Shown here piece after piece: positions 19,440-44,261 of a DNA stretch of 58,052 nt. The position numbers and the translations under genes are program-made. A model generated the notes under the pieces. It ran no database searches. It worked only from the letters and a program-made list of their open reading frames with translations, and was not told the origin of the DNA. Numbering within the stretch: position 1 is the first letter of the stretch; every line of letters begins with the position of its first letter. Source of the stretch: a virus (taxonomy: Duplodnaviria; Caudoviricetes); the IMG/VR virus record IMGVR_UViG_3300036770_003243, positions 1 through 58,052 of that record; one strand, written 5' to 3'.

Positions 19440-19442
19440 TGC

Positions 19443-20767: not shown

Positions 20768-20799
20768 CGCTACCCTGCGGATCAAGCTAGGAGGGGTCG

Positions 20800-21309: not shown

Positions 21310-21310
21310 C

Positions 21311-22328: not shown

Positions 22329-22531
22329 TGAGGCGCAAGTTCACTCCACGGGCCATGGCCCTCTTCGTGATGGCCATGTCGACGGGATGCTCGGCCACGC
22401 GGTGCAAGACGCTGGCAATCGATATCCTGCCCACAGACAAGCCCAAGCCTGCGGGCAAGGTCGAGATCCGTTGCGACGGCAAGCCCATCGTGCAAGCCGT
22501 GGCTGACGAAGTGAAAGCGGGGGACAAGTGA
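22328..22531 (+). CDS. Small lipoprotein (possible spanin-like)
   Basis: MRRK, hydrophobic stretch, STGC lipobox-like; lysis context. Confidence 0.5.
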   Translation: MRRKFTPRAMALFVMAMSTGCSATRCKTLAIDILPTDKPKPAGKVEIRCDGKPIVQAVADEVKAGDK

Positions 22532-22758
22532 TCGAGCAGGCCCGCGCAAATTGGATCACTTGGGAGCAGCGAATCAACCTGCTGGCCGCCATCGATGCGG
22601 TCATCTCGGCCCGCGTTGCAACCTACTACGGGCACTCGATCAGCCCTGCCATCACCGCCGAACTGGCCAAGCTGGCGCTCGATCAGGTGGAGGCGTACCT
22701 CGCCAAGCCAGTCCAAGTGCAGGCCGACACTGTGACCATCACCGACCACAGGGGGTAG
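22528..22758 (+). CDS. Hypothetical protein
   Basis: GTGA coupling. Confidence 0.55.
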   Translation: MIEQARANWITWEQRINLLAAIDAVISARVATYYGHSISPAITAELAKLALDQVEAYLAKPVQVQADTVTITDHRG

Positions 22759-22759
22759 C

Positions 22760-22957
22760 ATGAATCTGCCAGCCAAGGCGCCCAAGCCAGCCCACCTCTC
22801 AGTCACAATCTGGGGGCTGGTGTCCGTTGCCGTGGGCATTGCCCTCAGGATTGCCGTCGCCAACGGGGTCAAGCTCGCTGGGGCGGAGGATGAGATCCCC
22901 GCACTGCTTGAGGGCATCGGCGTGCTGATCGCAGGGTACGGACGCATCCGCAAGTAG
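22760..22957 (+). CDS. Two-TM holin-like protein
   Basis: 65 aa; SVTIWG..YGRIRK; near the endolysin. Confidence 0.55.
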   Translation: MNLPAKAPKPAHLSVTIWGLVSVAVGIALRIAVANGVKLAGAEDEIPALLEGIGVLIAGYGRIRK

Positions 22958-22964
22958 GAGCCTC

Positions 22965-23618
22965 ATGCCAAGCGCGGTCATCATTGGCGACAGCCACGTG
23001 GACGACTGGTCGCCGTTCGGAACCCGTCTCGCCAAGAACCTCAAGGCCGCCGGGTACGATGTGACCAAGCTCGGAGTCGGTGCAACCAGCACGGGCTCAT
23101 GGGCATACGGCAAGGCATGCCGTCCGAACAAGTCCAAGTGCGTAGACGTCGAGACGGATGTCCCCAAGGGCGCGGACGTCCTGCTGATCAGCCTCGGGAC
23201 CAACGACGCAGCCAACGCCCAAGCAGCCAAGTCGGACAGAGCCGCAGCCGCTGCCAAGACGACGGCGCGGATAAAGGCCATGGCCGAGAAGTACGAGGCC
23301 AAGCGCACCATCTGGATCCTGCCCCCGTGGCAGCGGGGCAACGTCAAGCACTACACGCAGGAGGCGATGGACTTCCTCTACGAGGTGGCGCAAGACGCGG
23401 GGGTGGAGCTGTTCGACAGCCGCGCCGCCACAGAGGCGCTGGTCAAGGGTGGCAGTGGCGACGGCGTCCACCTGCTCGGCAAGGGCGCTTCCGCTTGGGC
23501 CGACGCAGTTGCGGCTCAGGTCAAGGGAGAGGCCAAGGTGGCGGATGCGGGGTTCCCCATCTGGCCGATCCTGATAGCCGTTGTCGCCGGTGTAGTGCTG
23601 GCACGCCGCAAGGGCTAG
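22965..23618 (+). CDS. SGNH/GDSL hydrolase, tail-anchored
   Basis: IIGDSH, SLGTND, DGVH; C-terminal TM followed by RRKG. Confidence 0.88.
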   Translation: MPSAVIIGDSHVDDWSPFGTRLAKNLKAAGYDVTKLGVGATSTGSWAYGKACRPNKSKCVDVETDVPKGADVLLISLGTNDAANAQAAKSDRAAAAAKTTARIKAMAEKYEAKRTIWILPPWQRGNVKHYTQEAMDFLYEVAQDAGVELFDSRAATEALVKGGSGDGVHLLGKGASAWADAVAAQVKGEAKVADAGFPIWPILIAVVAGVVLARRKG

Positions 23619-23899
23619 GACTGCCCGCTCCAACGCCTGCCGAGATAGTTGCCGATGGCAAACGCTGCAAAGTCGGCGGCTTTGTTGGACAGAGGCTCGA
23701 TCTCCCGCTTGCGCAACAGGCCCGACCGCTGCGAGAACAGCAGGCTGTAGATGATGTCGGTGGTGAGTGCGATGCCAAGGGCGCGGAGCATGGTCACCTC
23801 GGCCAGTCCCGTGGCAAGGCCTGAGCTGAAGTGGATCACGGTCCAAGGATCGAGGACGGCGTAGTCATCGGGGTGCTTGGCGTAGAGCTTGACGTTCAT
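23615..23899 (-). CDS. Small membrane protein
   Basis: DPWT..HF..G and E...N...D pattern; hydrophobic. Confidence 0.55.
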   Translation of the reverse strand: MNVKLYAKHPDDYAVLDPWTVIHFSSGLATGLAEVTMLRALGIALTTDIIYSLLFSQRSGLLRKREIEPLSNKAADFAAFAIGNYLGRRWSGQS

Positions 23900-24321: not shown

Positions 24322-24563
24322 ACGCCACCGAACGGGGGTGGGGGCGGAGGCTCGCGATGGAGACCCCAAGATGCCAACAAGGCATCCACCTCATCGGGCA
24401 AGCAGTATCCGTACTGGATCGCGTCCTCAGGCACCCACTCGCCCCACGATGCACCAATGTAGCCAGCGGGCTGGTCTGTTGCGTCCAGCACAGGTACGTC
24501 TGCCACATCGCATGGGGGGGCGTAAGCGTCGGTGGTCGAGCGGTGGAACACGGTCAAGTTCAT
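24318..24563 (-). CDS. Hypothetical protein
   Basis: ATGA coupling; Pro-rich end. Confidence 0.55.
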   Translation of the reverse strand: MNLTVFHRSTTDAYAPPCDVADVPVLDATDQPAGYIGASWGEWVPEDAIQYGYCLPDEVDALLASWGLHREPPPPPPFGGV

Positions 24564-25336
24564 GCAATCCCCGCACGTTGCGAGAGAAGGATCGACAAAT
24601 CGAACGCCTGCCTTGCTGCGGACGCCCCGCGCAGGACAAGGACAGACGACAGCCACCCATTGACGGCGAACGCCGCGCCGTTATTGCGGGAGCCAATGTA
24701 GTTCTGCAAGCTGCCAAACGTGCCGGTGTTGTTCGCTGTCGACCACGGGGTGAGGGTAACGCTCACCCCGTTCTGGTACGAGGCCAGCTCGGAGACTGCG
24801 GGGGCGGCTTTGTCGAAGATGGATGCGTTGCACAGCCAACGGTTCTGAGCGGAAGCCTGCGATGCGCCTGAGTACCCCGCATTTCCCTGCAACGCCAAGC
24901 CTGCCTCGGTGGATCGCCCGTACACCACGAATCCCTGCTGGGTGTAGTTGAAGTCGGTGGACCGCTCGAACAGATTCTTGTTTGTGGAATCAGTCAACCA
25001 CCTGACGGTGTAAACCGACACCGCTTGGTCGTTCCACGTCGTCGACGGAGTCACTAGGCAATCGTTGACCCCGTCAAACTGCATCGACGGGATGTTATCC
25101 TTGGATGCGTGCAGCGGCTGCTTGCTGGACAGGGCCTGTGTGGCGTTGGCTGATCCGATCAAGTCCGACCAAGCCCCCACTGCGGTTCCGTAGGGGACTG
25201 GGTTGGATGCGGCATCCAGCCACAGGAGGATCAAGGGGGAGAAGTACCAGCGGATCTGCCCCCCAGCAAACGTGGACCGCTGCTGGCGGGGGGCGAATCG
25301 GTTGGCCGTCCGTGCTTGTCTGGCCTGCAAGATCAT
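24560..25336 (-). CDS. LamG/concanavalin-like beta-sandwich protein (possible spike/receptor-binding)
   Basis: LWLDA..WSD...ATQ...QP..FDGVND..YQNG..IG motif chain. Confidence 0.7.
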   Translation of the reverse strand: MILQARQARTANRFAPRQQRSTFAGGQIRWYFSPLILLWLDAASNPVPYGTAVGAWSDLIGSANATQALSSKQPLHASKDNIPSMQFDGVNDCLVTPSTTWNDQAVSVYTVRWLTDSTNKNLFERSTDFNYTQQGFVVYGRSTEAGLALQGNAGYSGASQASAQNRWLCNASIFDKAAPAVSELASYQNGVSVTLTPWSTANNTGTFGSLQNYIGSRNNGAAFAVNGWLSSVLVLRGASAARQAFDLSILLSQRAGIA

Positions 25337-25343
25337 GACGGCC

Positions 25344-25709
25344 TCAGTAGGTGACGCCTTGGATCAGGATGCCCGCGCTCACGCCCGCACCAACGGGGCT
25401 CAGGACGCGGCAGAAGATGCGGCTGACACCGCGCATCTCAAGCTGGAAGAACCCACCGCCGTTGACGGTGAGCACGGTCGTCTGCGGGACGTCTGTGTAG
25501 AGGAACCACGTGTTGGGCACGGAATTGTAGACGTAGAACAACACGTCGAAACTGGTACCGCCAGACAGCCCCACCCACGCATTGATGAATCGCAGCTGCT
25601 GGGTATCGAAGCCGATCGTGCCGGGGTTGGCCGCGCCGATGGGCGATCCATTGTCCGCTACGAGCGGGCCTACGCTTCCGAGCGTCGTAACCTTGGGGCC
25701 AAATGACAT
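25344..25709 (-). CDS. Small beta-rich protein (possible virion vertex component)
   Basis: Alternating hydrophobic strands; SD GAGG; directly upstream of the LamG gene. Confidence 0.55.
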   Translation of the reverse strand: MSFGPKVTTLGSVGPLVADNGSPIGAANPGTIGFDTQQLRFINAWVGLSGGTSFDVLFYVYNSVPNTWFLYTDVPQTTVLTVNGGGFFQLEMRGVSRIFCRVLSPVGAGVSAGILIQGVTY

Positions 25710-29014: not shown

Positions 29015-29386
29015 ATGGCCACGTCGCCCGCCCGCCGCCCCAAGGAATCACAGGCGGGGCCACCAGACGGTTGGCAATCTTGGGGCCAGCACGTCTTGAG
29101 CGAGCTTGAGCGCTTGTCGCATGCCGTCGAGTCCGTCCGCGAGCAGGTTGCCGAGATCCGCCAAGACGGACGCGTGGCCCAGCACACCAGCGAGATCGAG
29201 GATCTCAAGGTGTGGCGCAAGGCGCACGACGAGGTAGCCACCCCCAGCCAGCTGGGCAAAGCACTTGACAAGATTGACGACCTGCGCACCACCCAGATCA
29301 AAGCCTACACCCTGATGGCGGTCGGCCAAGTCCTCCTGACCGCGCTTGGGGGTATCGTCCTCTGGTGGCTCAAGAAGGCTGGCTAG
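29015..29386 (+). CDS. Coiled-coil protein with C-terminal TM
   Basis: Heptads; TM followed by KKAG. Confidence 0.65.
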   Translation: MATSPARRPKESQAGPPDGWQSWGQHVLSELERLSHAVESVREQVAEIRQDGRVAQHTSEIEDLKVWRKAHDEVATPSQLGKALDKIDDLRTTQIKAYTLMAVGQVLLTALGGIVLWWLKKAG

Positions 29387-31848
29387 TAGTAGTAGGTTGG
29401 ATCTTCCTGCACCCGCCCAAACATCCACGATGACAGCCGCTCCTTCTCCCACTTGCTTCGGCGCGTGCTGTCGGTGAGGTCGAACCACAGGAACCCGTTC
29501 CAGTTCCCGCCGCCGTGATGGGCCTTGACCGCCCCAGACAGCGACTCGAAGTAACTGCCCGGGACGGCGTTGCGGTTGCTTTCCAGAACATAGAACCTGC
29601 GGGGGGATGCCCCCTCCGTGCCCTTGCCGTTGGCCACCATGACCGTCAGCCCGTCGCGGCGCAGCACCGTGCCGATGGGTGGGATGCGCGGATCCACGCC
29701 CCCCTCCTTGGCCTGCCGTTGCGGAGCTGCGCGGAGCGTAGTGCGCCCCTCGCCGCCCTTGCCGCGAGTAGCGCGGGGGACAGGCTCGGACGCGCCCTTC
29801 TTGGCGGCGGCAAGTACCGATGGCAGCTTGTCGCCCAGCTGGGAGATCATGCACGTCAGCCCGGACGAGAAGTGCTCGTCGTGGCCGCTGATCCCGTAGA
29901 GGCCGTGGACGCACTCATGGACTGCCCGCGCCGTGATGATGGCCTGATGCCGTGGGATCGTCGCATCCAGCGGGATCACGTCGGGCGAGTCGGGGCGCAA
30001 GTTGACCATGCTCTTGGGGATCAACAGCTCCTCTTTTCGCAGCTCGCCTGAGTCCACGAACGGGTTGATGCAGTAGCTCCGGGCACCGCTGACCGTCTTG
30101 CTCCAGTCCGCGTAGGCAAGGGTTCCCTCGGAGAATACGAATCCCACGCAGAACTTCTCCTCGTACTGCCCAAGGATCGCGTAAATGCGGCGCAGTGCCT
30201 CCGTCCAAGCGCGGAGCAGACGGATCTGCTGCTCGCCCATGGTCTCGGGACGCCACTCAGGACCGGGCGACCAGTCCGAGAACTCGTTGGTCAAGCGCAG
30301 CGGTGGACGCCATAGCGCCAGATTCACCACGGAGGCCATGGCCGCTCCGCCCCCCTTGGCTGCCTCCTCGACCATCTCCCTGACCAGATCGGGCGGCGTA
30401 TCTTGGACGGCGGCGGGAGTGGCGATATCGGGGGCCTGCTGGGTGGCCCGCTCCTTCATGATGCTCTGGATCGCGGAGGAGACCTTGTCGGCCTTGTCCT
30501 GCTCCAGCTTGCGCTGCTCGGCCTTGGAGTCGGGCTGGCGGCGCTCGGCCATGCGCTCGTACTCGTACTGCGCATCCCACGCGGCGTTCATGGCGCGCCT
30601 CAAGCCGGCATCCATCTCCACACCAGCGGCCTCGCCTGAGCCCTCGAACTCCTCGTCGAACGCCTCCTCGCGGAATGTGCTGGAGACGTCCTTGGCCAGC
30701 CGCGTCTTGAACTTCTCCCACCACTCGCCGGGCGACCACGTGAAGCTGTCGCGGGTGTTGGTCAGCAGGCGCTTGGTGTCGCCTGTGATCTGCACAAAGA
30801 GCGTGCCCGGGACAATGCCCGCCTCGATCCACATCAGCTGCCCGCCTGCGCGGATCACGGTGCTCCCTGAGGAGTCGTTGGAGGCTGGCGGGGCCAAGTA
30901 CAGCTCGATGCCGGGGTAGCTTGCCTTCTCAGGGAACTTCTTGGCGGTGGGGGGGATCGATACGTTGGGGGCAAACTGCTCGCCGTTGACGATGATGAGC
31001 TTGCCCGGCAGCTCGCACTTGACGACGTAGCTGATGATGTCGGGAGGGCACGGCAGGCCCTTGTTGCCGCCCAGCTGGCGGGTGAGCCCAGCCTCCTGCA
31101 TGTATTCGTGCAGCTCGTTGGTCCCACGGATGTACAGGGACGTGCCGTGGCCCTGCTTTTCGATCTTGGCGATGAACGGCTTGGCGTCGGCGTAGGGCAG
31201 GAACTCGGATTCTGGCTTGGATGGCGAGATGTCCGTCCAGTGCGGGGGCACCCCACCCTTCTGGCGGGCGTACTTGACCTCGTGGCACTTGCCGTCGCGC
31301 CAGTAGTCCCACACCTCGCCGCTGCCGATCACGACCAGTGTCTTGCCGCCACGCTGCTTGGTGACGATGATGAAGTGGTCCCACGGAAAGGTGAGGAGCT
31401 TCTTGGCCTCGCCAAAGCCACCGACTGCCCAGATCGGCTTCTCGCTCATGCCGGGGACCATGAGCTTGTTGAGCAGGATGTCCTCGGTCATGCCCTTGCC
31501 GTCATCGACAGCACTGACGTCGTTATCGCCGCAAGTGAACTCGATCTTGGTGGCTCCAGCATCGAAGCTGTTCTGGATCGCCTCACGCGCCCAAGCCTGT
31601 GGAGGGTGCTTGTACCCGTCCGTCAGGGCGGGCTTCATGCGCTCCTTGCGGGATGGCGGCGCTTGCGATGCGTTGCGCTTGAGCGTGCCCGGCGCAGGCC
31701 GTCCGTGCGGCGGGCCATCGGCGGGGAGGCGCATAGGCAGGTGCAGGCTCTTGCCGTAGCGGGCCTCAAGCGCACGGGCCTCTTCCAGCGTCTCGGTCAA
31801 GTACTCGTCGCCGTTGGGGAGGCGGACGTGGAAGTTGTACCTTGGCAT
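29383..31848 (-). CDS. GHKL ATPase - zincin (HExxH) - RAMA/DUF2924-like fusion protein
   Basis: REAIQNSFDA, DDGKGM, GGFG; HECVH..GHDEHF; SLSGAV...NWNGFLWF. Confidence 0.8.
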   Translation of the reverse strand: MPRYNFHVRLPNGDEYLTETLEEARALEARYGKSLHLPMRLPADGPPHGRPAPGTLKRNASQAPPSRKERMKPALTDGYKHPPQAWAREAIQNSFDAGATKIEFTCGDNDVSAVDDGKGMTEDILLNKLMVPGMSEKPIWAVGGFGEAKKLLTFPWDHFIIVTKQRGGKTLVVIGSGEVWDYWRDGKCHEVKYARQKGGVPPHWTDISPSKPESEFLPYADAKPFIAKIEKQGHGTSLYIRGTNELHEYMQEAGLTRQLGGNKGLPCPPDIISYVVKCELPGKLIIVNGEQFAPNVSIPPTAKKFPEKASYPGIELYLAPPASNDSSGSTVIRAGGQLMWIEAGIVPGTLFVQITGDTKRLLTNTRDSFTWSPGEWWEKFKTRLAKDVSSTFREEAFDEEFEGSGEAAGVEMDAGLRRAMNAAWDAQYEYERMAERRQPDSKAEQRKLEQDKADKVSSAIQSIMKERATQQAPDIATPAAVQDTPPDLVREMVEEAAKGGGAAMASVVNLALWRPPLRLTNEFSDWSPGPEWRPETMGEQQIRLLRAWTEALRRIYAILGQYEEKFCVGFVFSEGTLAYADWSKTVSGARSYCINPFVDSGELRKEELLIPKSMVNLRPDSPDVIPLDATIPRHQAIITARAVHECVHGLYGISGHDEHFSSGLTCMISQLGDKLPSVLAAAKKGASEPVPRATRGKGGEGRTTLRAAPQRQAKEGGVDPRIPPIGTVLRRDGLTVMVANGKGTEGASPRRFYVLESNRNAVPGSYFESLSGAVKAHHGGGNWNGFLWFDLTDSTRRSKWEKERLSSWMFGRVQEDPTYYY

Positions 31849-31854
31849 CTTGCC

Positions 31855-32631
31855 TCACGATGAGAACGACTGGAGCACGGTCCCCGTCTCAAGATACAAC
31901 GGCTCGATTCCTTGGACAAGATACTGCTTTCGAAGCACGCTTGTCGTGTGCCCCAATTTGGCGGCGACGATGCCCAGCGCTGCCATGAACTCGGCCTTGA
32001 GCGTGCGCTGCACGTCGCGGGGCTTGAGCGTGTCGAGGCGGGGGCCTGCGCGGCGGATGGAGGCAAGCTCACGCTGCATCTCGGTGTTTGCGCCAAATGT
32101 GCGCAGATCCTTGGCACTCACCTCAAAGGCATCAAGGTACCGATTCACCGCGCTGGCTGACACTGGCAGGAGGCGGGTGTGCTGGCCACGGCAGGTCCGC
32201 TTGCGCTCGGCCAATGCACGCACCAGCGTGGGGTTGGTGATTGTCTTGGTCTGGTGGACGCCGCTCTTGCCGATGTAGTCGATCACTGCGCGGCTGGCCT
32301 TGAGGTCGATGTGGCGGCATTCCCACCCAGTCACGCCAAAGTGGCCGAGCTTCGCAGATGAGCTGTTGCCCGGGCGCTCGTAGGTATCGAGGATCAGGCC
32401 AACAGCAAGGGCAGTCACATCGCCATTCTTGACGTCACGCATGACTGCGGCGCGGAGCGCTCGCTCCTTGGCTTTGAGAGCCTCAATGCGCTGCGCCTTC
32501 TTGGCGTGCCGCTTGGCGACGTCCTCAGGACTGTACCGGTACTGCCAGTTCCCGCTTGGGAACAGCACCTTCTCGGTGTAGGGGTTGCGGACGAGGCGTC
32601 TTCGAAGCCTCCGAAGTGGTCTGCCCGCCAT
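31855..32631 (-). CDS. DNA topoisomerase IB (compact catalytic domain)
   Basis: RPGN, GKSG, KDLRT..AN, LGHT..V...QY give the R-K-R-H-Y pentad. Confidence 0.9.
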   Translation of the reverse strand: MAGRPLRRLRRRLVRNPYTEKVLFPSGNWQYRYSPEDVAKRHAKKAQRIEALKAKERALRAAVMRDVKNGDVTALAVGLILDTYERPGNSSSAKLGHFGVTGWECRHIDLKASRAVIDYIGKSGVHQTKTITNPTLVRALAERKRTCRGQHTRLLPVSASAVNRYLDAFEVSAKDLRTFGANTEMQRELASIRRAGPRLDTLKPRDVQRTLKAEFMAALGIVAAKLGHTTSVLRKQYLVQGIEPLYLETGTVLQSFSS

Positions 32632-32632
32632 G

Positions 32633-33343
32633 TCACACTCCCTGCACCAGCAGCTCAAGCTCGGCCACTGGCACTGTGCCACTGTCGGTTGGCGTGGCCT
32701 GATACTCGGAGTCCTTGCCAGCGTCCAGCGTCCTCACGACCTGACTGCCGTACAAGCGCACCTTCCACACGTCGCGGACGCCCCCCAGATCCTCGGCCAG
32801 ACCGATCGCCCGATCCAGTGATCGGGTGAGGAACACGCCCGCAGGCAGCTCCATCTTGCGCAGCAGGCGCTTGCGGTCGCGCACAGGGCGGGCCGTGTAG
32901 AGGGTCAGCAGCTTGCTTGCCTGCCGCGCCGTCGAATTGGGCGACTGCAATTCCTGCACCAGCGTGAAGTAGTCCGAATCGGCATCGGCATCTTGGCCAA
33001 AGAATCCCCGCTCTCCGTACTCCAGCAGGTCTTCGGGGTGCCTGATGTCGGAGGCGAACACTGTGAAGTCCAGATTGCCGTGTCCCACCTTGACAGTGAC
33101 GCTGTTGAGGAACGTCTCCGAATACGGGGAGTCGCTAAACTCGGGGACCAGCGTCACCTTGGACCCACGCCATGCTGGGCCAGCGCGGTCAACTGCCTGC
33201 TCGACTGCATCCGCTACAAGCAGCACTCCGGGCTGTGCCCTCTCGGCCACAAGGTCGAGCGAGTCCCGCGAGAATCTACGGCCTGCGTCCCGCGCAAACC
33301 TGTCCCACTGCGTCGTCGTGATGCCGTTGCGGCGCTTGCGCAT
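32633..33343 (-). CDS. Hypothetical protein, possible C-terminal ART-like fold
   Basis: MRKRRNG start; TLY..R, GVFLT, EYQ spacing. Confidence 0.5.
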   Translation of the reverse strand: MRKRRNGITTTQWDRFARDAGRRFSRDSLDLVAERAQPGVLLVADAVEQAVDRAGPAWRGSKVTLVPEFSDSPYSETFLNSVTVKVGHGNLDFTVFASDIRHPEDLLEYGERGFFGQDADADSDYFTLVQELQSPNSTARQASKLLTLYTARPVRDRKRLLRKMELPAGVFLTRSLDRAIGLAEDLGGVRDVWKVRLYGSQVVRTLDAGKDSEYQATPTDSGTVPVAELELLVQGV

Positions 33344-33661
33344 CTACTCCCCCAAGCCGCGCAGGATGCGCTCGCACCAGTCACGTCCGGGATCCCCACC
33401 CCATGCGAGCCACGCCTGCCACCCCTTGCTGTCGGTACCCCAGCGGGGGCTCCGCCCGTCTACCGCGTGTCGCTGGAAGTACGAGCGCATGCGCTTGAGC
33501 GTATTTACGCTCACTGGCTGGCGGTTGGCCAGCTGTGCAGCGCGGCGCAAGCCCACGGGCGTGCAGCAGCGGTTGCTTGGCGGTTGCTTCGCACGCAGCT
33601 CCAGCCCCTTGCGGGCGGCAGCGGCGACAGCGGGGGGCGGGGTGAATGTCAGAGACATCAC
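33344..33661 (-). CDS. Conserved phage domain protein
   Basis: T.VG..RA.QLA..KRM.SYF.RH..AW.AWGGD.G..W motif. Confidence 0.65.
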   Translation of the reverse strand: MMSLTFTPPPAVAAAARKGLELRAKQPPSNRCCTPVGLRRAAQLANRQPVSVNTLKRMRSYFQRHAVDGRSPRWGTDSKGWQAWLAWGGDPGRDWCERILRGLGE

Positions 33662-34108: not shown

Positions 34109-35920
34109 TCAACCTTCCCACACGACCAGCCTGCCGCTCTGGTCGCGCAGGGTCTTGGCCTTCTTGCTCCAGCGGCTCATGAGCGTGGGGTCAGCACCAA
34201 GGCGCAAGTCGGGCATCCACGGCTCGGATGCCTCCCTCATCACGGTAGCAAGCCTGTCCGCAGCTTCGGGGGCGACGTCCCGCCGCGACTCAAGCAGGAT
34301 CTCGTCGTGGACGAAGGCTGCAACCCGCGAGCCGCGCAGTGCCGTGTTGCTACCCAGCGCCCCGTAGCACTCGACCGACACCCGCCAGAGCGCCTCCTTG
34401 GCAACCTTGGCCAAGAGCGACTGGAAGTAGTGGTTCGCGCCGCTGGTGTACTCGCACCCACCCCGGACGAATCCCGTCAGTGGATGCGTGATCTTGAACA
34501 CGCCGCCGCGTGTCGCGGCCTTGAGGGTCACGAAGTACCTGTCCATCTCGGGGTACAGCGACAGCCACATGTTGCGGCATTCAGTGGCCCTCTCCAAGCT
34601 CGTCTCGATGCCGAAGCCTCGCAGGTACGCTTGCAGCGTCTTGGGGGCGAGGCCCCCCGGGATGCCGAAATTCAGCGCCTTTGCGAGCTGGCGTGCCTCC
34701 GTAGCGGCGGTGTCGCCTGCCTTGTAAGCTGCGACCGTGTCGGCATACGACCACCCCAGCAGCATCGCAGCGGTGTTGAGGTGCAAATCCTGCCCGGCCA
34801 TGATGGCGTCCGCCATCGCCGAACGTCCAAACAGACGCAGCAGAATTTGGGCAAGGCACACAAGTTCGGCTCCCGCGTAGTCCGCACTGCAAAACACGTT
34901 TCCCGTGTACGGCACGAAGCACTCCCGCACCCCGCCCTTGCGCGGCAGCTGCTGGATGTTCGGCTCGCTGCACGACACCCGATCCGACTTGAGGATCGCC
35001 GTATACCGGGGGTGGATCACGCTCCCAGCGCCACGCTTGAGCACGGGGATGAACGCGGATTGCAATTTGCTCGCGGTCGCGCTCTCTGCCAATGCAACCA
35101 GCGCGGGGTGGCGGCACTTGGCAAGCGTGTCGGCGTCCGTCTTGGGCTTGCCCGTGGCAGTCTTCGGGCTGTCAGGGCCAAGCTCTGCCTCGACCAAGGA
35201 CGCCACCAGCGCCATGTTCTTCGATCCATCGCCCCGCAAGATGCGGTGTTCCCGCAGGATCATGTCCTGCTGGGCGACATCATCCCGCAACGATCGCTCA
35301 AGAGCGGCAACGGCAACAGGGTCGCATCGCATGCCCCACGCGCTCGATAGGTGGAGTGCCCACGCTGCGCGGGACTCGAACTCGTCCGTTGGCTGCCTTC
35401 CGACCTTGTGCCAGAGGAGCGCCGTGTAGGTGACGTCCAGCTCGGCGTACCGTGAAGCAGCCGCTGGCCACTTGTCTACGGGGACACTGGTCAGCTCGCG
35501 GTACCGCAAGCGCCACGCATCGGCACCGTGCTTGCCCTCCACGTCCACTCCCAGCAGGCGCTTGCAGCAATCCGCCAGCGAGTACCCGTCCGCCACGCTG
35601 TCGTTGGCGACGTCCGCAAGACGGCAAGCGAGCATCGTATCGAGGATCCTGCCCTCGCTGTACGCCTGCCAGATCAGCTCACGCAGGGACGGGTACCACT
35701 GCGCAAGAACCGCCATGTCGAAGGCCACATTATGGCCGACAACGCCACCCGTCAGAACCCCAGCCATCTCACCTACAAGGCGGGGATCCGACCACAAGCG
35801 CAAGGTCACGGCATCGGGAGTACGCACATCCGCCCACGCCACGCTCACGGGATGAGGGGCGAGCTGGCTTGGCGCGATGAGCCAAGTTTCAAGATCAATG
35901 GCACGCCAGACCAACGGCAT
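34109..35920 (-). CDS. Family A DNA polymerase with 3'-5' exonuclease
   Basis: DLET, HNVAFD, YAELD; DYAGAEL, RQLAKALNFG, VHDE. Confidence 0.95.
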   Translation of the reverse strand: MPLVWRAIDLETWLIAPSQLAPHPVSVAWADVRTPDAVTLRLWSDPRLVGEMAGVLTGGVVGHNVAFDMAVLAQWYPSLRELIWQAYSEGRILDTMLACRLADVANDSVADGYSLADCCKRLLGVDVEGKHGADAWRLRYRELTSVPVDKWPAAASRYAELDVTYTALLWHKVGRQPTDEFESRAAWALHLSSAWGMRCDPVAVAALERSLRDDVAQQDMILREHRILRGDGSKNMALVASLVEAELGPDSPKTATGKPKTDADTLAKCRHPALVALAESATASKLQSAFIPVLKRGAGSVIHPRYTAILKSDRVSCSEPNIQQLPRKGGVRECFVPYTGNVFCSADYAGAELVCLAQILLRLFGRSAMADAIMAGQDLHLNTAAMLLGWSYADTVAAYKAGDTAATEARQLAKALNFGIPGGLAPKTLQAYLRGFGIETSLERATECRNMWLSLYPEMDRYFVTLKAATRGGVFKITHPLTGFVRGGCEYTSGANHYFQSLLAKVAKEALWRVSVECYGALGSNTALRGSRVAAFVHDEILLESRRDVAPEAADRLATVMREASEPWMPDLRLGADPTLMSRWSKKAKTLRDQSGRLVVWEG

Positions 35921-35944
35921 GACCACTCCATGTGGGGGGAAGTA

Positions 35945-35992
35945 CCCCGCCACCGCATAGGGTGCTTGGAAAACCTAGAGGCGGTGGCGGGG
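35945..35992. other. Intergenic stem-loop upstream of the polymerase
   Basis: CCCCGCCACCGC..GCGGTGGCGGGG, 12-bp arms. Confidence 0.55.
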
Positions 35993-36023
35993 TTCCTGTG
36001 CCGGCACCCTGCCGTCACGCGGA

Positions 36024-36464
36024 TCAGGCTGCGGCAGCAGTGGTGGTCACGCTGTCCCAGCGGATCTTGGTGAAGTCGTTGCCGCCCTTGGTCTTGATCG
36101 TGAAGGCGTTTGCCTTGATCTTCACGCCAGCTGCGGGCTGCTCGGGGCCGACGAGCTTGAGCATCGTGGCCTCATCGATCTGCTCCTCGTCGCAGTCCAG
36201 CACGGCGCTCGCGAACGCCTTGCAGTTGCTAAGCGACGTCTCGCCGTGGTCCATGTCGACCAGCCACGACACCAGATCCCCAGCCTTGAACTCGGGGGCG
36301 GTGGTGCTCATCACGTCAAACTCGGCCACGAAGAACTGCTGGCCGCGCTTCTTCTTGCTGTCCACCAGCGACATCGAGCGGATGACCAGCTCGTACTGTC
36401 CCGGCGTCAGGTAGGGGGCGTTCTGGTAGACCCGGGTCTTCTCGATACCTGCAAAAGCGCTCAT
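36024..36464 (-). CDS. Putative ssDNA-binding protein
   Basis: PG.Y...I beta-rich pattern; lies between helicase and polymerase (inferred from context). Confidence 0.5.
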   Translation of the reverse strand: MSAFAGIEKTRVYQNAPYLTPGQYELVIRSMSLVDSKKKRGQQFFVAEFDVMSTTAPEFKAGDLVSWLVDMDHGETSLSNCKAFASAVLDCDEEQIDEATMLKLVGPEQPAAGVKIKANAFTIKTKGGNDFTKIRWDSVTTTAAAA

Positions 36465-36481
36465 GATTCCTCCTTGTCCTC

Positions 36482-38224
36482 TTACTTGTCGATGTGGCAG
36501 GCCAGAAGCAGCTTCTGGGCTTGCCCGGTGGTGTGCTGCAAGTATTCCGCATCCCGCTGGGCACTGGTCAGCGCCTCACGGAACGCGGGGGTGTGGGCCA
36601 GCACGCTTACCCACACCTCATCCTCCTGCTGCCCCGGACGGTGCGTCCGCCCGATCAGCTGCTCCCACTCCAGCCCACTCGGGCTTGGCGAGAGCACAAG
36701 GTTCTGCGACCAAGCCTGCAAGTTCAGGCCCGTACCGTGGCTCCTCCAAGACAGGCAGACCGTCTTGGCGTCCTTGGGAACGGGCTTGCTCGGCCTGATG
36801 ACGTCCATCCCGCGCCGCGCAAGCGCATCGGCCACTGCGTCGTCCGAGTACCAGACCAGCCATGGCGAGGGCGATGATAGCACAGGTGCCAATGCTGCGT
36901 CAAGCACGCGCTCAGTGAGCCAGACCGCTTCCACGGGTGGCGTCGGTCGATCCTTGACCTTGCGCCACTCCTCCCATGCCCTGTGGATCGATGCCCTCTG
37001 CCCCGCCGCATGCTCCCGCGAGATGCGGTTGTAGACGAGCAGCGGGCTGTCGTAGCCCTCGACGGCGTGATGATCCAGCTGGGAGCGGACATGCCTTGCC
37101 CACGCCGCCCTTGCCTCCAGCCACTCGCGGTCTGGGACGCCGTTGGGCCAGACCCAGCGGTACCAGAACCCCATCGAGATCTGCCGCAAGATCCGCCACT
37201 CGTCGACGGGTGACTCAAGAGGTTCACCGTCAGGGCGGCACTTGGTCCGCTCCACCTGCGCTACCGTCTGCGCGATCACGTCGGGCACCGCTACCCGAAT
37301 CCGCTCGACGTAGAGCGACGCACCAAAGCTCGACTGCGCGGTGGTGACCACCCCCTTGGCGCTGGAGATGCGCGCATGGAAGGCATCCCTGAGGCCCTCC
37401 TTGCGCTCGGCTGTCGTAGCGGCAAGGATCGTGGCAGGCTGCTTGCCTGCCCACTTCCACAGCGGCTCGCACCAGACCAGATCCGCAGCGCCTCCCCTGC
37501 CGTCAGAATCGATGCAAGCCGACCAGTGGTCGAGCGCTGCATTGCCTTGCGGGTATCCCGGGCGGGGGACGGGTGAGCCATCCCGCAGCGCCCACTCGGA
37601 CAGGTGTGCGAAGTCCTTGATCGACTTGGCGGTCAGGGTGCCGCTCATGGCGACAAACTTGATATCAGGGTTCTCGGACAGGAATCGCGCCACCCGCTTC
37701 GTCCGTGCTGCCGTGTGGCGCTTGAGGCAGTGCGCCTCATCGGCCACCAGCACCACCTTGGCGGGGTCGCATCCGTCGATGAGCCTGCGCAGCAGGTCCG
37801 TGGCGTCGGGGCGGCTCAGCATCGAGTACGGCACGATCTCCGTCCGTGGGATGCGGAAGTGCGAGTCGACCTTGGCCAGCGACTGGTAGACCTGATCGAC
37901 CGTGCGTGGGGGCGTGAGCACGATGGCCCGCTGCGCGCCAAGCGCAGCGCCCGCCAGCAGGGCGATGAAGGTCTTGCCGTGGCCTACGCCGATCGGAAAC
38001 AGCCCCCCACCCGCCGCTGCAATCGCCCCAAGGGCCTCGAGCTGGATGGGCCGAAGGTCCAGCCCAGCCCGCTTGAAGACCTGCTGGCAATCCCAAGGAC
38101 GGACCTGCGCCCGGGGGAGTTCGATGATGCGCTCGATCTCCGAGCGCTGCGCCGCCTTGGGCTTGGCCTCTTGCGGCTGGCGCATGTCCACCCGCCGTGC
38201 GGCGAGGCGATCCCACATGTTCAT
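36482..38224 (-). CDS. SF2 (SNF2-like) helicase
   Basis: G.GHGKT, DEAH, SGT, GLNLQ, QLIGRTHR.GQ. Confidence 0.88.
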   Translation of the reverse strand: MNMWDRLAARRVDMRQPQEAKPKAAQRSEIERIIELPRAQVRPWDCQQVFKRAGLDLRPIQLEALGAIAAAGGGLFPIGVGHGKTFIALLAGAALGAQRAIVLTPPRTVDQVYQSLAKVDSHFRIPRTEIVPYSMLSRPDATDLLRRLIDGCDPAKVVLVADEAHCLKRHTAARTKRVARFLSENPDIKFVAMSGTLTAKSIKDFAHLSEWALRDGSPVPRPGYPQGNAALDHWSACIDSDGRGGAADLVWCEPLWKWAGKQPATILAATTAERKEGLRDAFHARISSAKGVVTTAQSSFGASLYVERIRVAVPDVIAQTVAQVERTKCRPDGEPLESPVDEWRILRQISMGFWYRWVWPNGVPDREWLEARAAWARHVRSQLDHHAVEGYDSPLLVYNRISREHAAGQRASIHRAWEEWRKVKDRPTPPVEAVWLTERVLDAALAPVLSSPSPWLVWYSDDAVADALARRGMDVIRPSKPVPKDAKTVCLSWRSHGTGLNLQAWSQNLVLSPSPSGLEWEQLIGRTHRPGQQEDEVWVSVLAHTPAFREALTSAQRDAEYLQHTTGQAQKLLLACHIDK

Positions 38225-38236
38225 CGCACCACCTCC

Positions 38237-39529
38237 CTACCCGATCCGCATCACGATCCGATCGTAAAGGGGGCGCAGGATCTCCAGCGCCACGTCACTG
38301 GCGGGCAGGCGGGGGTCGACCACCAGCACTGGGGGCACTCCAGCCTTGGCCTTGTGGCTGATGAGAGCACCGAGCGCAGTCTTGCCCTTGCCGTACTCGG
38401 CCTGAGCGTAGTAGTCCACGCCCATGGCTTGAGCGGCCTCGGTGACCAGCGGGGCAATCCACTGGTCAAGGAGCACGAAGTTCTCGTTTACCGGCAAGCA
38501 GCCGACGTACAGGGTCGGCATCGCGAACGGGTCGTTGATCTTGCTGCTGTCCTTGGTCGGGGGCTGCGGCAGCACGTCCGCGAACGTGTCGACTGGGGGG
38601 AACGATGTATCAGGCTTGCTCCCAAACAGATCCTGCTGCGGCTCCGCTTGAGGCGCGGGCTCTGCTACAGGCACGGGGGCGTGGCTTGCAACCTGCGGGG
38701 GGTTGATCGCGCCCGCATCTGTCACGCCTTGCGTCTGCTTCTTCTTGGCCAGAATCTCCATCACGTCCACGGCTTCCTCCTTCTTGTCCGCTTCCATTGC
38801 GCTCCAGACGCTCCTGCCCAGCAGCGCCTTGCAACGCGCCACGTGCGGGCACCCGCCGTACGCCTTGCACGGCGACGGGTCTGGGCCTTCCATCGCGCCC
38901 CGCACCCTTGCGGGGTCGCGCTCTTGGGCATTGATGGCAATCTTGGCCACCTTGCCCTTGATCTTGTCATACGCTGCCGTCAGCTCGACGGGCATGAACT
39001 TCGCTTGGACCGTGCGGGCATCTGGGCTGCCCTTGGTCTGGTAGACGATGTGGCGGAATGCGAGGCTGTTGACGCGCAGCATCCCCTGCTTGAACGCCCA
39101 CGTGCAGTAGACGACGGCCTGTGGATCGGCTGCAAGCTCGGCAGGCGTCTTGACCCAGCGCAGGCTGCTCATGAACTTGTGGTCGATCACTACTGACTGC
39201 TCAGGCGCAATCAAGTCGATCCTGCCGATGATGGGCAGGTCGGCACCCTCCAGCCGCATGTCAGTCTCGACCTTGAGGGGGGTGTCCTGCGGCACAAACC
39301 GCCAGCCAGCCATCGCCACCTTGACCGCTTCGGGATCGTCTGGCCAAGCGCCCGTCAGGATGCGGTGCTCGACCGCCGCATGACCACGCGTGCCGAACGC
39401 CGCCCCAGCGTTGGTGGGCACCTCGATACCGCCCACCTTCTCCAGCCAGTGCTTGCGCTCGCACATGTCGAACGTCTTGAGCTGGCTGGGGCTGACGTGA
39501 GCCAGCGGCAGGTACTTGTAGCCGTCCAT
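38237..39529 (-). CDS. PD-(D/E)XK exonuclease (RecB/Cas4-like)
   Basis: SPSQL...C; GT..H; GRIDL; DHK; Q...Y; C..YGGCP....C. Confidence 0.85.
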   Translation of the reverse strand: MDGYKYLPLAHVSPSQLKTFDMCERKHWLEKVGGIEVPTNAGAAFGTRGHAAVEHRILTGAWPDDPEAVKVAMAGWRFVPQDTPLKVETDMRLEGADLPIIGRIDLIAPEQSVVIDHKFMSSLRWVKTPAELAADPQAVVYCTWAFKQGMLRVNSLAFRHIVYQTKGSPDARTVQAKFMPVELTAAYDKIKGKVAKIAINAQERDPARVRGAMEGPDPSPCKAYGGCPHVARCKALLGRSVWSAMEADKKEEAVDVMEILAKKKQTQGVTDAGAINPPQVASHAPVPVAEPAPQAEPQQDLFGSKPDTSFPPVDTFADVLPQPPTKDSSKINDPFAMPTLYVGCLPVNENFVLLDQWIAPLVTEAAQAMGVDYYAQAEYGKGKTALGALISHKAKAGVPPVLVVDPRLPASDVALEILRPLYDRIVMRIG

Positions 39530-39551
39530 GTCCTTCTCCTCGTCCGCGCAG

Positions 39552-39616
39552 ATCCTAGCACCCGGCGCACGACTTGTCTAGTGCTAGTTGACAGCCTTCG
39601 CGGCTTGGGCTAGGTT
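39552..39616. promoter_or_regulatory. Back-to-back promoters of the replication region
   Basis: - strand TAGACA-17-TAGGAT (39580-39552); + strand TTGACA-17-TAGGTT (39588-39616). Confidence 0.7.
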
Positions 39617-39633
39617 GCCCGCAGGAGGACACG

Positions 39634-39870
39634 ATGGACCATCAAGTGCGCACGTTCGCGGTCTGGCTCAAGGGGTCGGGGCTATCTGCTCAAGACCTTG
39701 CTGAAGCTCTAGGTGTGTCAAGGGCCGCGATTTACAAGTGGATCGGCGGCGAGTGCCTACCGAGCGCTGCCACCCTGATCAAGCTGGAGGCGATCTCCCA
39801 AGGCAAGATCACGGCGCGGTCTTTCGCACGGCAGTCCGTGCAAGGGGGCGAGAATGGCGGTGAAGATTAG
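39634..39870 (+). CDS. Cro/XRE-like HTH protein
   Basis: LAEALGVSRAAIYKW..G...PS. Confidence 0.88.
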   Translation: MDHQVRTFAVWLKGSGLSAQDLAEALGVSRAAIYKWIGGECLPSAATLIKLEAISQGKITARSFARQSVQGGENGGED

Positions 39871-42115
39871 CGTCTGGGTTGACAAGTTCGTCGTCGGCTG
39901 GAGCGGCGATGGGGGAGCGCCCCCTCAAGTCCACCCCGTGATGCCGATTGCAGAAGCGATGGCGGCAGAGTACGGCAGCGACGCACACTTCGTGCCGTAC
40001 CGACTGCGGCATGACAGCGGAGTCGACCTGCCCGATTGCCCGCGCCTCAAGGTAGACAGCCTTGGGCACTTGCGGGACTACGGGGTGGGGCTGGTGTTTG
40101 ACTGCGCAGTCGCCGACATCGACCACGCCGACACCCATGCGGGCAGGACGCCTGAGCCCCCGCAGGAGTGGCGTGACAAAGTCTGGAAGATGGCCTTGGA
40201 GGCGTGCCCGGGTTGCCTCGCCTACGAGACGCGGAGCGGCATGCGCGTCGTGGTGGCATTGCCTGAGAGCATGCAAGTCGGACCATGGCAGGCTTGGTGC
40301 AAGAGGTTCCGCCAGTACCTGCGGGATCAAGGCCTGCCTGTAGACGAGATCCAAGCGTGGGCGCAGCCCTACCGCCTGCCGTTCGTCGATCGGGACGGCC
40401 AGCCGCAACGACGGCGGGCCGAGATCCGTGAGCCAGCTGTGTTTGAGATTCCACGGCAGCAGCAAGACCAGCCGCAGGCCATGGGCGACGGCATCGATCC
40501 ACGACAGCCTTTCAGGCTACCGCGCAGGATCCCCGAAGGGCAGCGGCATCATACCCTCGTCCGCTACGCGGCGCAGTTGCGGTGGCAAGGCCTCGACCAC
40601 GACGCCATCTTGGGCCAGATCCACGAGGTCAACCGCAACAGGTGCCGCCCCGCAGCGCCCGATACCGAGATCGCCGAGATCGCACGGTGGGCCTCTGTGC
40701 AAGAGGACGGCCAGCAAGCGCGGCAGGCCGCTGCTGGCCGCGAACGTCCAGCCGACGCCGACCCTGAGGACGGGGACGAAGAGCCGTTCCTGCTGGGGGA
40801 TCACACCGAGATCGCCAAGCGGGTGGCCGAGCACTTCACCAAGGGATCTCCCGTGCAGATGGTCGCGGATCTGGGCAAGATCTGGAGGTACGACCCTCAA
40901 ATGGGCTACTGGCGGGAAGTGGCCGAGCATGAGCTGAGCAAGCTGATCCACAGCTACAGCGGGATCGATGTCCGCAATATCGGCCCGCAAGGCAACGTGC
41001 TCTGGCGGCCCATGCGGATCAACGACTCGACGGTGGTAGGGGCCATCAAGAGCCTGCACCGCCTGCTTGCAGTGCCCGGGTTCTTTGCCAGCGCACCCGC
41101 AGGCATCGCATTCAAGGACTGCTGGGTGCAAGTGACGGCGGATGGCGTCGCCAAGCTGCCCCACGACCCGTCGCAGAAGGCCATGAGCGGCTACGACTTC
41201 GGATGGACCGACGAGACCCCCGACGTCTGGCTGACCATGCTTGCCGACTACTGGGGCCACAAGGAAAACCACCTCGAGAACGTCACCCTGCTCAACGAAT
41301 TCCTCGGCGCTTCGCTATGCGGCATCGCCCCCAAGTTCCAGCAGGCGCTGGGCCTTGTCGGCAAGGGCAGCAACGGCAAGAGCCAGATCCTGCGCGTGGC
41401 GACGGGGCTGTTCCCAGATGGCACGGTGACCAGCGTGTCGCCCCAGATGTTCGGGGTGGAGACGTACCGCGCCATGTTGGCTGCCAGCCGCTTGAATGTA
41501 GTGGGTGAATTGCCCGAAAAGCGCATCAAGCAAGAGGCGGCGGCATCGATCAAGGCTTTGATCAGCGGCGACGAGATTGTGGCCCGTCATCTCCGCGAAA
41601 ACCCGTTCAAATTTAGACCCCTCGCGGGGCACGTGGTGGCATGCAATGCCCTGCCAGACGTCGAGGACGACAGCGACGGCTTCTACAGGCGGTTCATCCT
41701 GCTGATGTTCGACCGCATGTTCAGCCCGCATGGTGGCACTTCGGAGCTTGGCGACGAGGTGCTGGCCATCGACAAGGCGAGGATCGTCTGCTACGCCCTG
41801 CGATGCGTCCCCACCCTGATCAAGAGGGGCAAGTACAAGGTTCCCAAGGAGTCGGTCGACGAGGTCACCGCGTGGCGCAACGGCCAAGACGAGGTCGCGT
41901 TGTTCCTAAGTGATCGCACCGAGCCTTGCGAGCCCGTCCGTGGGAACGGGACAGACGGCGAGTCGCTCTACATGGCCTACGCCGTGTGGGCTCCCCAGAA
42001 CGGCTACGAGCAGATGAACAAGAACAGGTTCCTCAACGCCGTTGACAAGCGTGCGAAGCGGTTCTACGATAACGGCGTGCAGCGGCGCATGTATCCTGTC
42101 ACGCTGACCCGCTGA
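39854..42115 (+). CDS. Primase (AEP-like + PriCT) - D5/SF3 helicase
   Basis: DID, T.SG.R, RLP; EGQRH..L; GKGSNGKS; N.LP...D..GF.RR. Confidence 0.9.
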   Translation: MAVKISVWVDKFVVGWSGDGGAPPQVHPVMPIAEAMAAEYGSDAHFVPYRLRHDSGVDLPDCPRLKVDSLGHLRDYGVGLVFDCAVADIDHADTHAGRTPEPPQEWRDKVWKMALEACPGCLAYETRSGMRVVVALPESMQVGPWQAWCKRFRQYLRDQGLPVDEIQAWAQPYRLPFVDRDGQPQRRRAEIREPAVFEIPRQQQDQPQAMGDGIDPRQPFRLPRRIPEGQRHHTLVRYAAQLRWQGLDHDAILGQIHEVNRNRCRPAAPDTEIAEIARWASVQEDGQQARQAAAGRERPADADPEDGDEEPFLLGDHTEIAKRVAEHFTKGSPVQMVADLGKIWRYDPQMGYWREVAEHELSKLIHSYSGIDVRNIGPQGNVLWRPMRINDSTVVGAIKSLHRLLAVPGFFASAPAGIAFKDCWVQVTADGVAKLPHDPSQKAMSGYDFGWTDETPDVWLTMLADYWGHKENHLENVTLLNEFLGASLCGIAPKFQQALGLVGKGSNGKSQILRVATGLFPDGTVTSVSPQMFGVETYRAMLAASRLNVVGELPEKRIKQEAAASIKALISGDEIVARHLRENPFKFRPLAGHVVACNALPDVEDDSDGFYRRFILLMFDRMFSPHGGTSELGDEVLAIDKARIVCYALRCVPTLIKRGKYKVPKESVDEVTAWRNGQDEVALFLSDRTEPCEPVRGNGTDGESLYMAYAVWAPQNGYEQMNKNRFLNAVDKRAKRFYDNGVQRRMYPVTLTR

Positions 42116-44182: not shown

Positions 44183-44193
44183 GGGTTCCTCCG

Positions 44194-44222: not shown

Positions 44223-44261
44223 AGCCCGCGACATGGCAGATTCAAACCCAAGGAGCAGGAC

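Follow-up and report, generated by a model that had tools for sequence, protein, structure and literature searches.

How a virus might enclose a 58-kb genome without a packaging motor is the question raised by positions 29383-33661 of IMG/VR record IMGVR_UViG_3300036770_003243, whose 58,052 bp were analysed in full and are called the window here. This locus consists of four minus-strand open reading frames (ORFs), among them those of a putative GHKL ATPase and a type IB topoisomerase (topo IB). The first-pass annotation had noticed these two enzymes, an SNF2 enzyme and several basic proteins next to the lack of a recognisable packaging ATPase, and had proposed that a circular genome is condensed into a nucleoprotein core and enclosed rather than pumped. 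In this study, we find no trace of such an ATPase in the window or in its one complete relative, and we find that the basic structural proteins share short sequence motifs with topo IB, SNF2 and GHKL proteins of the lineage. Enclosure of a nucleoprotein without a motor seems to us about an even proposition (probability about 0.5), with topo IB rather than the SNF2 or GHKL enzyme as its conserved enzymatic component.

Search for a packaging ATPase

Genes were called by third-position GC because the DNA is GC-rich (61-66% throughout the 58,052 bp), which gave 75 ORFs; a Pfam scan at E<=0.01 covered all 75 and a PHROG scan covered 57. The searches were extended to G001, the sole further IMG/VR record found with capsid alignments, which measures 58,644 bp, has a terminal repeat of 123 bp and contains 64% GC. 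Three loci came from a metagenome scan; L004 and L005 repeat the virus of G001, and L003 is a fragment of 2 kb.

P-loop Pfam families matched exactly four proteins of the window, namely the DEAD, ResIII/Helicase_C and SNF2 proteins and the D5-like PriCT_1+DUF5906 protein, and these are the three superfamily 2 (SF2) helicases and the D5 helicase to which the first-pass annotation had confined the P-loops. The Walker A expression [GA]xxxxGK[ST] had eight matches in six frames, with a canonical P-loop context only in the D5 helicase. The earlier impression that no FtsK/HerA/A32-like ORF is present also held in six-frame profile searches at E<=10, where Pox_A32, FtsK_SpoIIIE, TerL_ATPase, AAA_10 and DUF87/HerA had no match in the window or in G001, and Terminase_6N had none in the window. 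As a positive control, a comparable scan of the P23-77 packaging ATPase gave matches to 19 P-loop families of Pfam, Pox_A32 and Zot included. Moreover, a custom profile made from four packaging ATPases (P23-77, PRD1 P9, PM2 P9 and SH1 ORF17) recovered all four at E<1e-79, and its best match in six frames of the window and of G001 was the ResIII helicase, at insignificant E values of 0.26 and 0.35. The only GK[ST] sites that the window and G001 have in common lie in the helicases, topo IB, the nuclease and a single small basic module. Among the matches listed for the 73 ORFs of G001 (the best 25 of 37 Pfam families), the P-loops were only those of helicases, DUF5906 and a Zeta_toxin/AAA_33 kinase. 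These searches confirm, at the level of sequence and down to the sensitivity of profiles, that a packaging ATPase of the FtsK/HerA/A32 or terminase type has left no trace in the window or in G001.

One match with a terminase name was set aside. Terminase_5 (25.8 bits) fell on an 85-amino-acid (aa) ORF in the replication module of G001 (9397-9654, L016) and was rejected as an ATPase, the model being a 58-position helix-turn-helix; the proteome scan that listed it also listed Sigma70_r4 and HTH_23 matches. The predicted product is a small DNA-binding protein and no ATPase.

Enzymes of the locus, basic proteins and shared motifs

The topo IB of the locus matches Topoisom_I with 62 bits, against a cut-off of 23.7, and its catalytic pentad R, K, R, H, Y is intact in alignment with D. 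radiodurans TopIB (2f4q) and the poxvirus enzyme (2h7f), with which it has the Topoisom_I domain in common. Unlike distant cellular homologs, it has no N-terminal domain PF21338; in the lineage, modules of its own are joined instead through the sequence RNPRRLVxNPY. In the putative GHKL ATPase, the N-box EAIQNSFDA and the G1 and G2 motifs DDGKGM and GGFGEA can be read in the translation, weak NCBIfam matches to MutL and restriction enzymes fall on the motif residues, and phage HATPase_c_3 proteins make up its closest clusters in the ESM Atlas (score 0.97). No sequence match was found in the PDB, and PADLOC returned nothing for this protein and its neighbours. Thus topo IB was borne out as first annotated, and so was the SNF2 enzyme inside the structural block (130 bits), whereas the GHKL assignment is upheld by its motifs and Atlas neighbours but has a HATPase_c_3 score of 23.8 bits, under the Pfam cut-off of 25.

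Conservation separates these enzymes. G001 keeps essentially the whole structural block 44181-52695 and the 952-aa protein that follows further downstream, and its identities to the window are 46-68% in the replication module, 77% for the integrase, 76% for DUF932, 68% for topo IB and 72% for the 104-aa protein of the locus. Two of the three enzymes, the GHKL and SNF2 ATPases, are missing from it by tblastn, as are the 236-aa ORF, a 128-aa ORF and the large methylase, and an SNF2 profile found nothing in its six frames. Topo IB has 18 further close clusters at 58-78% identity, followed by a gap to bacterial homologs at no more than 46%. For SNF2, 20 clusters are close over the full length (49-93% identity), after which identity falls to 31% over 59% of the length. 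The longest contigs of capsid, topo IB and SNF2 clusters are of equal size in two cases (44,942 and 43,276), and those of capsid and SNF2 clusters in two more (51,614 and 12,750); these equal sizes suggest that capsid and SNF2 genes occur together in at least four more relatives. Judged by these comparisons, topo IB behaves as a core gene of the lineage, SNF2 appears to be a frequent but dispensable accessory, and GHKL, absent from G001, looks accessory as well. The first-pass annotation had named sporadic occurrence of these enzymes in relatives as grounds against its proposal; this applies in part, since SNF2 and GHKL failed to appear in G001.

The slot of G001 that is syntenic to the locus, between PolA and DUF932 (16502-23656, L010), is a variable cargo island. 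Its genes encode GP88-like and CHAP-like proteins, a Zeta_toxin kinase (113 bits), a GNAT and a topo IB of 594 aa that is fused to a 370-aa N-terminal extension, and several of those between PolA and topo IB carry the motif described next.

Several very basic proteins had been noticed in the first reading, and those of the structural block indeed have net charges of +28 to +49 (Table 1). They are assembled from short modules that recur in different proteins, and the boundaries of the modules are marked by R-N-P. The consensus of this RNP motif is (K/R)(K/R/V)RNP(S/T/A/R), and it is found at module boundaries, at N-termini (MPRRNP, MKQRNP, MRNP) and at C-termini, in this lineage only. It occurs 18 times in the proteome, about 11-fold more than in within-protein shuffles (1.6 +/- 1.3), and 21 times in G001. 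The sites lie in 2860-5366, 47028-47678 and 52695-54325 of the window and in 47040-49623, 53457-54969 and 19293-23656 of G001 (L006-L008).

The same motif is present in the enzymes. Fifteen of the 19 close topo IB homologs carry it, against none of 76 distant ones, and it stands, within RNPRRLVxNPY, at the joint between the catalytic core and variable N-terminal modules. Among these modules are a GNAT-like domain, ART-PolyVal PF18760 (relative P0057) and a homolog of the 104-aa protein of the locus (relative P0058, with the linker RNPRRLVHNPY). The sequence (K/R)(R/K)NPxxxLG(L/M) forms the C-terminal end of 17 of the 20 close SNF2 homologs, and RNP is present in 12 of 21 close SNF2 proteins (with KNP in the same tail in five more) against 1 of 99 distant ones; the SNF2 protein of the window itself has a plain arginine-rich C-terminal tail. 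A second element, a module of about 35 residues at the N-terminus of the GHKL protein (residues 1-48; F-x-F-x-V-x-L-P-x-G-x-x-Y-x-T-x-T-L-x-E-A), was found by jackhmmer also in the basic protein at 4596-5366 (residues 14-47), in the topo IB homologs P0052 and P0056, and at the N-termini of the G001 basic proteins 48013-49623 and 54115-54969.

We read both elements as common tags, which could act as a protease site, as a hook that binds DNA or the core, or as both, and which would load structural proteins and enzymes alike onto the core. RNP in particular could be a maturation cleavage site or an AT-hook-like element that binds DNA or the core. Maturation cleavage sites occur in core proteins of adenoviruses, poxviruses and asfarviruses. 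Since the RNP motif and the module of about 35 residues link the basic proteins to the enzymes, they suggest that the enzymes travel with the nucleoprotein core.

Capsid candidates and a proposed enclosure of the genome without a motor

An entire IMG/VR virus record makes up the window; it is rated 100% complete with direct terminal repeats, and its first 127 bases are identical to its last. This repeat fits the circular genome supposed at first, and it fits a terminally redundant molecule as well. Pfam matches include PolA with a proofreading domain, a PD-(D/E)XK nuclease, VRR-NUC, a tyrosine integrase, DUF932, two N6/N4 DNA methylases, Amidase_2, Peptidase_M15_4, SLT, PG_binding_1 and GDSL/SGNH enzymes. 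This content is that of a temperate bacterial virus, and a eukaryotic large DNA virus, suggested by the A32/D5 framing, was rejected on it (PolA, tyrosine integrase, Amidase_2, Peptidase_M15_4, SLT). Because Amidase_2, Peptidase_M15_4, SLT and PG_binding_1 are present, the host is expected to be a bacterium with a peptidoglycan wall. The hallmarks of tailed phages (large terminase, portal and HK97-fold capsid) were absent from the Pfam matches of the 75 ORFs, and no capsid, portal, terminase or tail PHROG matched among the 57 ORFs scanned. A single hydrophobic anchor is encoded at the C-terminal end of at least 10 of the 75 ORFs; proteins of this kind are expected where the virion has an internal membrane. 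We read the window as the complete genome of a temperate, tail-less bacterial virus that belongs to an undescribed lineage and probably contains an internal membrane. It has no tRNA genes, no prophage copy was found in 185,579 species genomes and no host was found. The 952-aa and 411-aa proteins had no tblastn match in 50,697 GenBank phage records, IMG/VR peptide-pattern scans with the 411-aa and 347-aa proteins gave no relative, and no paper describing the lineage or the RNP motif was found in the literature, supplements left out.

The capsid candidates are the products of four ORFs in the structural block. Homologs of the 261-aa protein, all of them metagenomic, form 38 clusters at 58-88% identity, on contigs of up to 51.6 kb. 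Its AlphaFold model from 40 sequences is a beta-sandwich (predicted local distance difference test, pLDDT, 75; predicted template modelling score, pTM, 0.78), with which Foldseek found nothing at E<=1e-3, VP17 having the top probability (0.92). The AF2 model of the 176-aa protein, from 62 sequences, is an eight-stranded jelly roll (pLDDT 91, pTM 0.83). Its VIA scores were 7.0 with a GOLD domain and with the major capsid protein of EhV-201, 6.9 with HHIV-2, 6.5 with the archaeal virus SPV1 and 6.0 with HCIV-1, and its top Foldseek rows were generic beta-sandwiches (haemagglutinin head, GOLD, plant virus coats). These models make the four proteins candidates for a shell built from single jelly-roll proteins in two paralogous pairs, the capsid proteins of SPV1, P23-77, HCIV-1 and HHIV-2 being among the top folds. 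A capsid role agrees with the context, because the genes are tandem paralogs, are conserved at the level of capsid proteins and are flanked by genes of small membrane proteins.

In the reading that we favour, which follows the mechanism of SPV1, a closed circular genome would first be condensed by the abundant RNP-box proteins from the structural block, which are modular and very basic, and enzymes with the common tags would ride on the nucleoprotein core. Membrane and capsid would then assemble around the nucleoprotein, and no DNA would be pumped into a preformed shell. Type IB topoisomerases relax positive and negative supercoils without ATP. Topo IB would relax the supercoils that come from wrapping and unwrapping the closed circle, and SNF2 and GHKL would be accessory cargo. 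Such a need for relaxation would account for the conservation of topo IB alone among the three enzymes. Hence the first-pass proposal of a condensed core that is enclosed and not pumped keeps the missing motor and the basic proteins on its side, but it loses SNF2 and GHKL as essential parts; because the complete relative G001 lacks both, neither can be essential for condensation or packaging in the lineage. A more elaborate version, which we offer tentatively and hold to be rather doubtful, is a bacterial portoglobovirus-like strategy at 58 kb, in a lineage that has lost a packaging motor or never had one. Here the RNP box and the adaptor of about 35 residues would load histone-like proteins and changeable enzymes (topo IB, SNF2, GHKL, zeta-toxin kinase, GNAT, ART), and a "minichromosome with cargo" would be enclosed and later delivered, topo IB being obligatory.

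Several points weigh against enclosure without a motor. We know of no precedent for it with a genome of 58 kb, about three times that of SPV1. The absence of an ATPase holds at the level of profiles and motifs, with two proteins folded, which leaves room for a non-canonical or very divergent motor; the gene calls are heuristic, the function of the RNP motif is purely inferred, and G001 is the only independent complete relative. The closest relatives of the GHKL protein belong to tailed phages, which pump DNA. Furthermore, helvetiaviruses, which have two jelly-roll capsid proteins, use an ATPase (PMC8812541), and this speaks also for a motor that is hidden in the window, either as a moonlighting SF2 helicase, the ResIII protein, or as a non-canonical ATPase among conserved ORFs (44181, 46148, 51652 and the 952-aa protein). 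The ResIII helicase was the top match of the four-ATPase profile in both genomes, although an insignificant one, it is 68% conserved, and it adjoins the first structural gene on the opposite strand; several conserved ORFs of the structural block have no family at all. Against this, the helicase belongs to an ordinary replication and recombination module together with VRR-NUC, D5 and PolA, and none of the conserved family-less ORFs keeps a Walker A motif in G001. We know of no SF2 helicase that serves as a capsid packaging motor, and we regard a hidden motor as unlikely. The SNF2 ATPase itself has been considered as the translocase that packs or ejects the genome, in view of its place within the structural block, its lineage-specific N-terminal region, its 20 close homologs and the four equal contig sizes with capsid homologs, and SNF2 enzymes translocate on duplex DNA according to PMC5512222. 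This is nearly excluded by G001, which has no SNF2 domain in six frames and yet keeps the whole capsid module.

A different role for the enzymes falls somewhat short of even odds, judged independently of the motor question, although it fits them as well as a part in condensation or uncoating does. Topo IB, SNF2 and GHKL would be early effectors of the "polyvalent protein" kind, delivered by the virion for anti-restriction, host takeover or establishment, with no part in condensation, and RNP would mark where such cargo is processed or would target it to the capsid. It is in line with the different enzymes held by the syntenic slot of G001, with the ART-PolyVal domain of the topo IB homolog P0057, with the fusion of a HELGH zincin module to DUF6900 modules in one of the basic proteins, with the strong match of SNF2 to the defence-type proteins DpdE and ZorD, and with the tailed-phage relatives of GHKL. 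PMC5512222 describes SNF2, metallopeptidase and ART domains in phage-head-packaged proteins, and the cleavage of P1 DdrB before packaging. Delivered effectors would nevertheless leave unexplained the conservation of topo IB next to variable other cargo and the abundance of RNP in basic structural proteins; they are compatible with motor-less assembly and silent on the missing ATPase. We give hardly any credence to a satellite or plasmid-like element that borrows the packaging machinery of a helper. An integrase, DUF932 and methylases are present and a motor is lacking, but the element has its own replication module and lysis enzymes within 58 kb, as well as four jelly-roll genes of capsid type and some 20 conserved genes in the structural block, and there are no tailed-phage parts for interplay with a terminase.

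Other genes of the window and comparison with known systems

The ORFs of the window lie in three blocks, one on the minus strand (about 9.6-20.2 kb), one of mixed orientation with lysis, methylase and replication genes (about 20-44 kb) and one on the plus strand that starts at 44,181 and continues over the repeat up to about 9,542 (Table 1).

Table 1. Features of the window, in the order of the locus, the replication module and the plus-strand block
Coordinates	Strand	Feature	Properties and basis
29383-31848	-	Putative GHKL-type (Bergerat-fold) ATPase	821 aa; HATPase_c_3; N-box, G1 and G2 in translation
31855-32631	-	Type IB topoisomerase	258 aa; Pfam Topoisom_I; conserved in lineage
32633-33343	-	ORF without family	236 aa; no Pfam or PADLOC match; no tblastn match in G001
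33344-33658	-	Basic protein without family	104 aa; pI 11.3; conserved, identity to C-terminus of 278-aa G001 protein
34109-44302		Replication module: PolA with 3'-5' exonuclease, DEAD helicase, PD-(D/E)XK nuclease, D5-like primase-helicase, VRR-NUC, ResIII/Helicase_C	Pfam; conserved in G001
36482-38224		DEAD helicase	Pfam
39854-42115		D5-like PriCT_1+DUF5906 primase-helicase	Pfam
42812-44302		ResIII/Helicase_C helicase with zinc ribbon	Pfam
44181-47678	+	Conserved morphogenesis genes: 411-aa coiled-coil/acidic, 214-aa transglutaminase-like, 252-aa, 216-aa protamine-like	63-67% identical in G001
47028-47678	+	Basic protein	Net +34, pI 11.5
47765-49271	+	Paralogous pair, large single jelly-roll capsid candidates	230 and 261 aa (ORFs 47765/48486), 34% identical
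49370-50453	+	Paralogous pair, small jelly-roll proteins (candidates)	176 aa each (ORFs 49370/49923), 42% identical
50450-55000	+	Small conserved structural proteins and basic RNP-box proteins at 51652, 52695, 53735, 54335	Conservation in G001, charge, RNP counts, anchors
52695-53735	+	Basic protein	Net +37, pI 10.3
55041-57467	+	SNF2-family ATPase	808 aa; SNF2-rel_dom 129.9 bits, Helicase_C 26.5 bits; lineage-specific N-terminal region of about 290 aa
57476-58052, across terminal repeat to 2409	+	952-aa protein with C-terminal hydrophobic anchor	ORF joined over 127-bp repeat; no family
2860-5366	+	Two very basic modular RNP-box proteins	559 and 256 aa; 5 and 4 RNP motifs
2860-4539	+	Basic protein	Net +49, pI 10.5
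4596-5366	+	Basic protein	Net +28, pI 10.3
5363-9542	+	Small tail-anchored membrane proteins and lysis-type enzymes	C-terminal hydrophobic segments; SLT, GDSL/SGNH matches from batch scan, bearer ORFs not named

The morphogenesis genes upstream of the capsid candidates have no PHROG, Pfam or NCBIfam family besides Transglut_core, and NCBIfam had nothing for nine conserved family-less ORFs. Transglut_core (E 0.0058) falls on the 214-aa protein (45424-46068), which has a C-terminal anchor and GDCDD, GFHV and VDP motifs that are kept in G001; as a transglutaminase-like Cys/His/Asp protein, it is a candidate for a maturation protease. The conserved 252-aa protein (46148-46906) has no family and no ESM Atlas neighbour. 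It contains a run of about 25 Asp/Glu residues and is encoded just upstream of the protamine-like protein at 47028, which has a hydrophobic segment; basic proteins might use the 252-aa protein as a chaperone or scaffold.

The SNF2 gene is placed in the plus-strand block between genes of basic proteins on one side and the gene of the membrane-anchored 952-aa protein on the other. The latter protein is 26% identical over 970 aa in G001, and a 133-aa protein encoded nearby (2513-2914) is 60% identical to its N-terminus (57476-57800). The 559-aa basic protein, whose true start (GTG 2860) is uncertain, begins with the HELGH zincin-like module (2860-3300) followed by two copies of DUF6900 (96 bits); in G001 the HELGH module is a stand-alone 128-aa gene (49680-50066). 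Being conserved in this way, the HELGH module is a second candidate for a processing enzyme beside the transglutaminase-like protein. Among the membrane proteins further along, the tail-anchored paralogs 6273-6998 and 7024-7698 are 56% identical. A strong DUF5824 match (E 3e-32) came from one of 47 small ORFs in a batch scan, the bearer ORF not being named. Two beta-rich ORFs of 258 and 121 aa (24560-25709), with no family and no counterpart in G001, may encode host-recognition proteins.

The genome of SPV1 is reportedly about 20 kb. This virus has a nucleoprotein core and no packaging ATPase, and enclosure of protein-condensed double-stranded DNA without a motor has so far been documented there (PMC8812541). 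The window resembles it in the lack of such an ATPase and in its single jelly-roll capsid candidates, with SPV1 among the top folds of the models, and differs in a bacterial host, as indicated by the lysis genes, against an archaeal one, in its 58-kb genome and in its duplicated capsid genes (2+2). The candidate DNA-coating proteins of the window are long modular RNP-box proteins; VP1 of SPV1 is a small five-helix protein. In the Helvetiavirae (Thermus phage P23-77, SH1, HCIV-1 and HHIV-2), an ATPase of the FtsK-HerA type adjoins the capsid genes and genomes measure 17-31 kb, whereas the window has 58 kb and no such gene, and PHROGs and Pfam gave no sequence similarity; the FtsK-HerA/A32-type ATPase gene that Helvetiavirae share with Tectiviridae and Corticoviridae was not found here. 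The lineage is therefore not placeable in Helvetiavirae as now defined, because the ATPase is missing, nor in Portogloboviridae, because host, genome size and gene content differ.

With the polyvalent proteins of the P1 DarB/DdrB type (Iyer et al., 2017; PMC5512222), the lineage shares SNF2, a zincin-like peptidase, ART and unrelated enzymes that occur in variable combinations in or beside the structural genes. That paper places polyvalent proteins mostly in phages with portal and terminase and in conjugative elements, whereas here the modules are often separate genes joined by the RNP motif; topo IB is not among the domains treated there ("topoisomerase" occurs once in the text). Fusions were seen in relatives, namely ART-PolyVal with topo IB in P0057 and the 594-aa topo IB of G001, and MPTase-PolyVal had no Pfam match in the window. 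The closest systems are thus SPV1 in mode of action, helvetiaviruses in the layout of the capsid genes and phage polyvalent proteins in enzyme cargo.

The capsid protein falls into about 40 clusters at 90% identity, and a 1.84-billion-protein library contains 65 representatives of the 176-aa protein (clusters at 50% identity), which shows a group that is real and diverse but unstudied. It has been proposed that helvetiaviruses arose from an SPV1-like ancestor by duplication of the capsid gene followed by capture of an ATPase (PMC8812541). Since the lineage described here combines duplicated jelly-roll genes and a bacterial host with the absence of an ATPase, the intermediate stage of this scheme would still be alive in it. 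If enclosure without a motor is true, bacterial viruses would share this strategy, and it would cope with a genome three times as large. Should the RNP box prove to be a real tag, protein sorting into a virion core could be tested directly through it, and virion cargo could be predicted from sequence.

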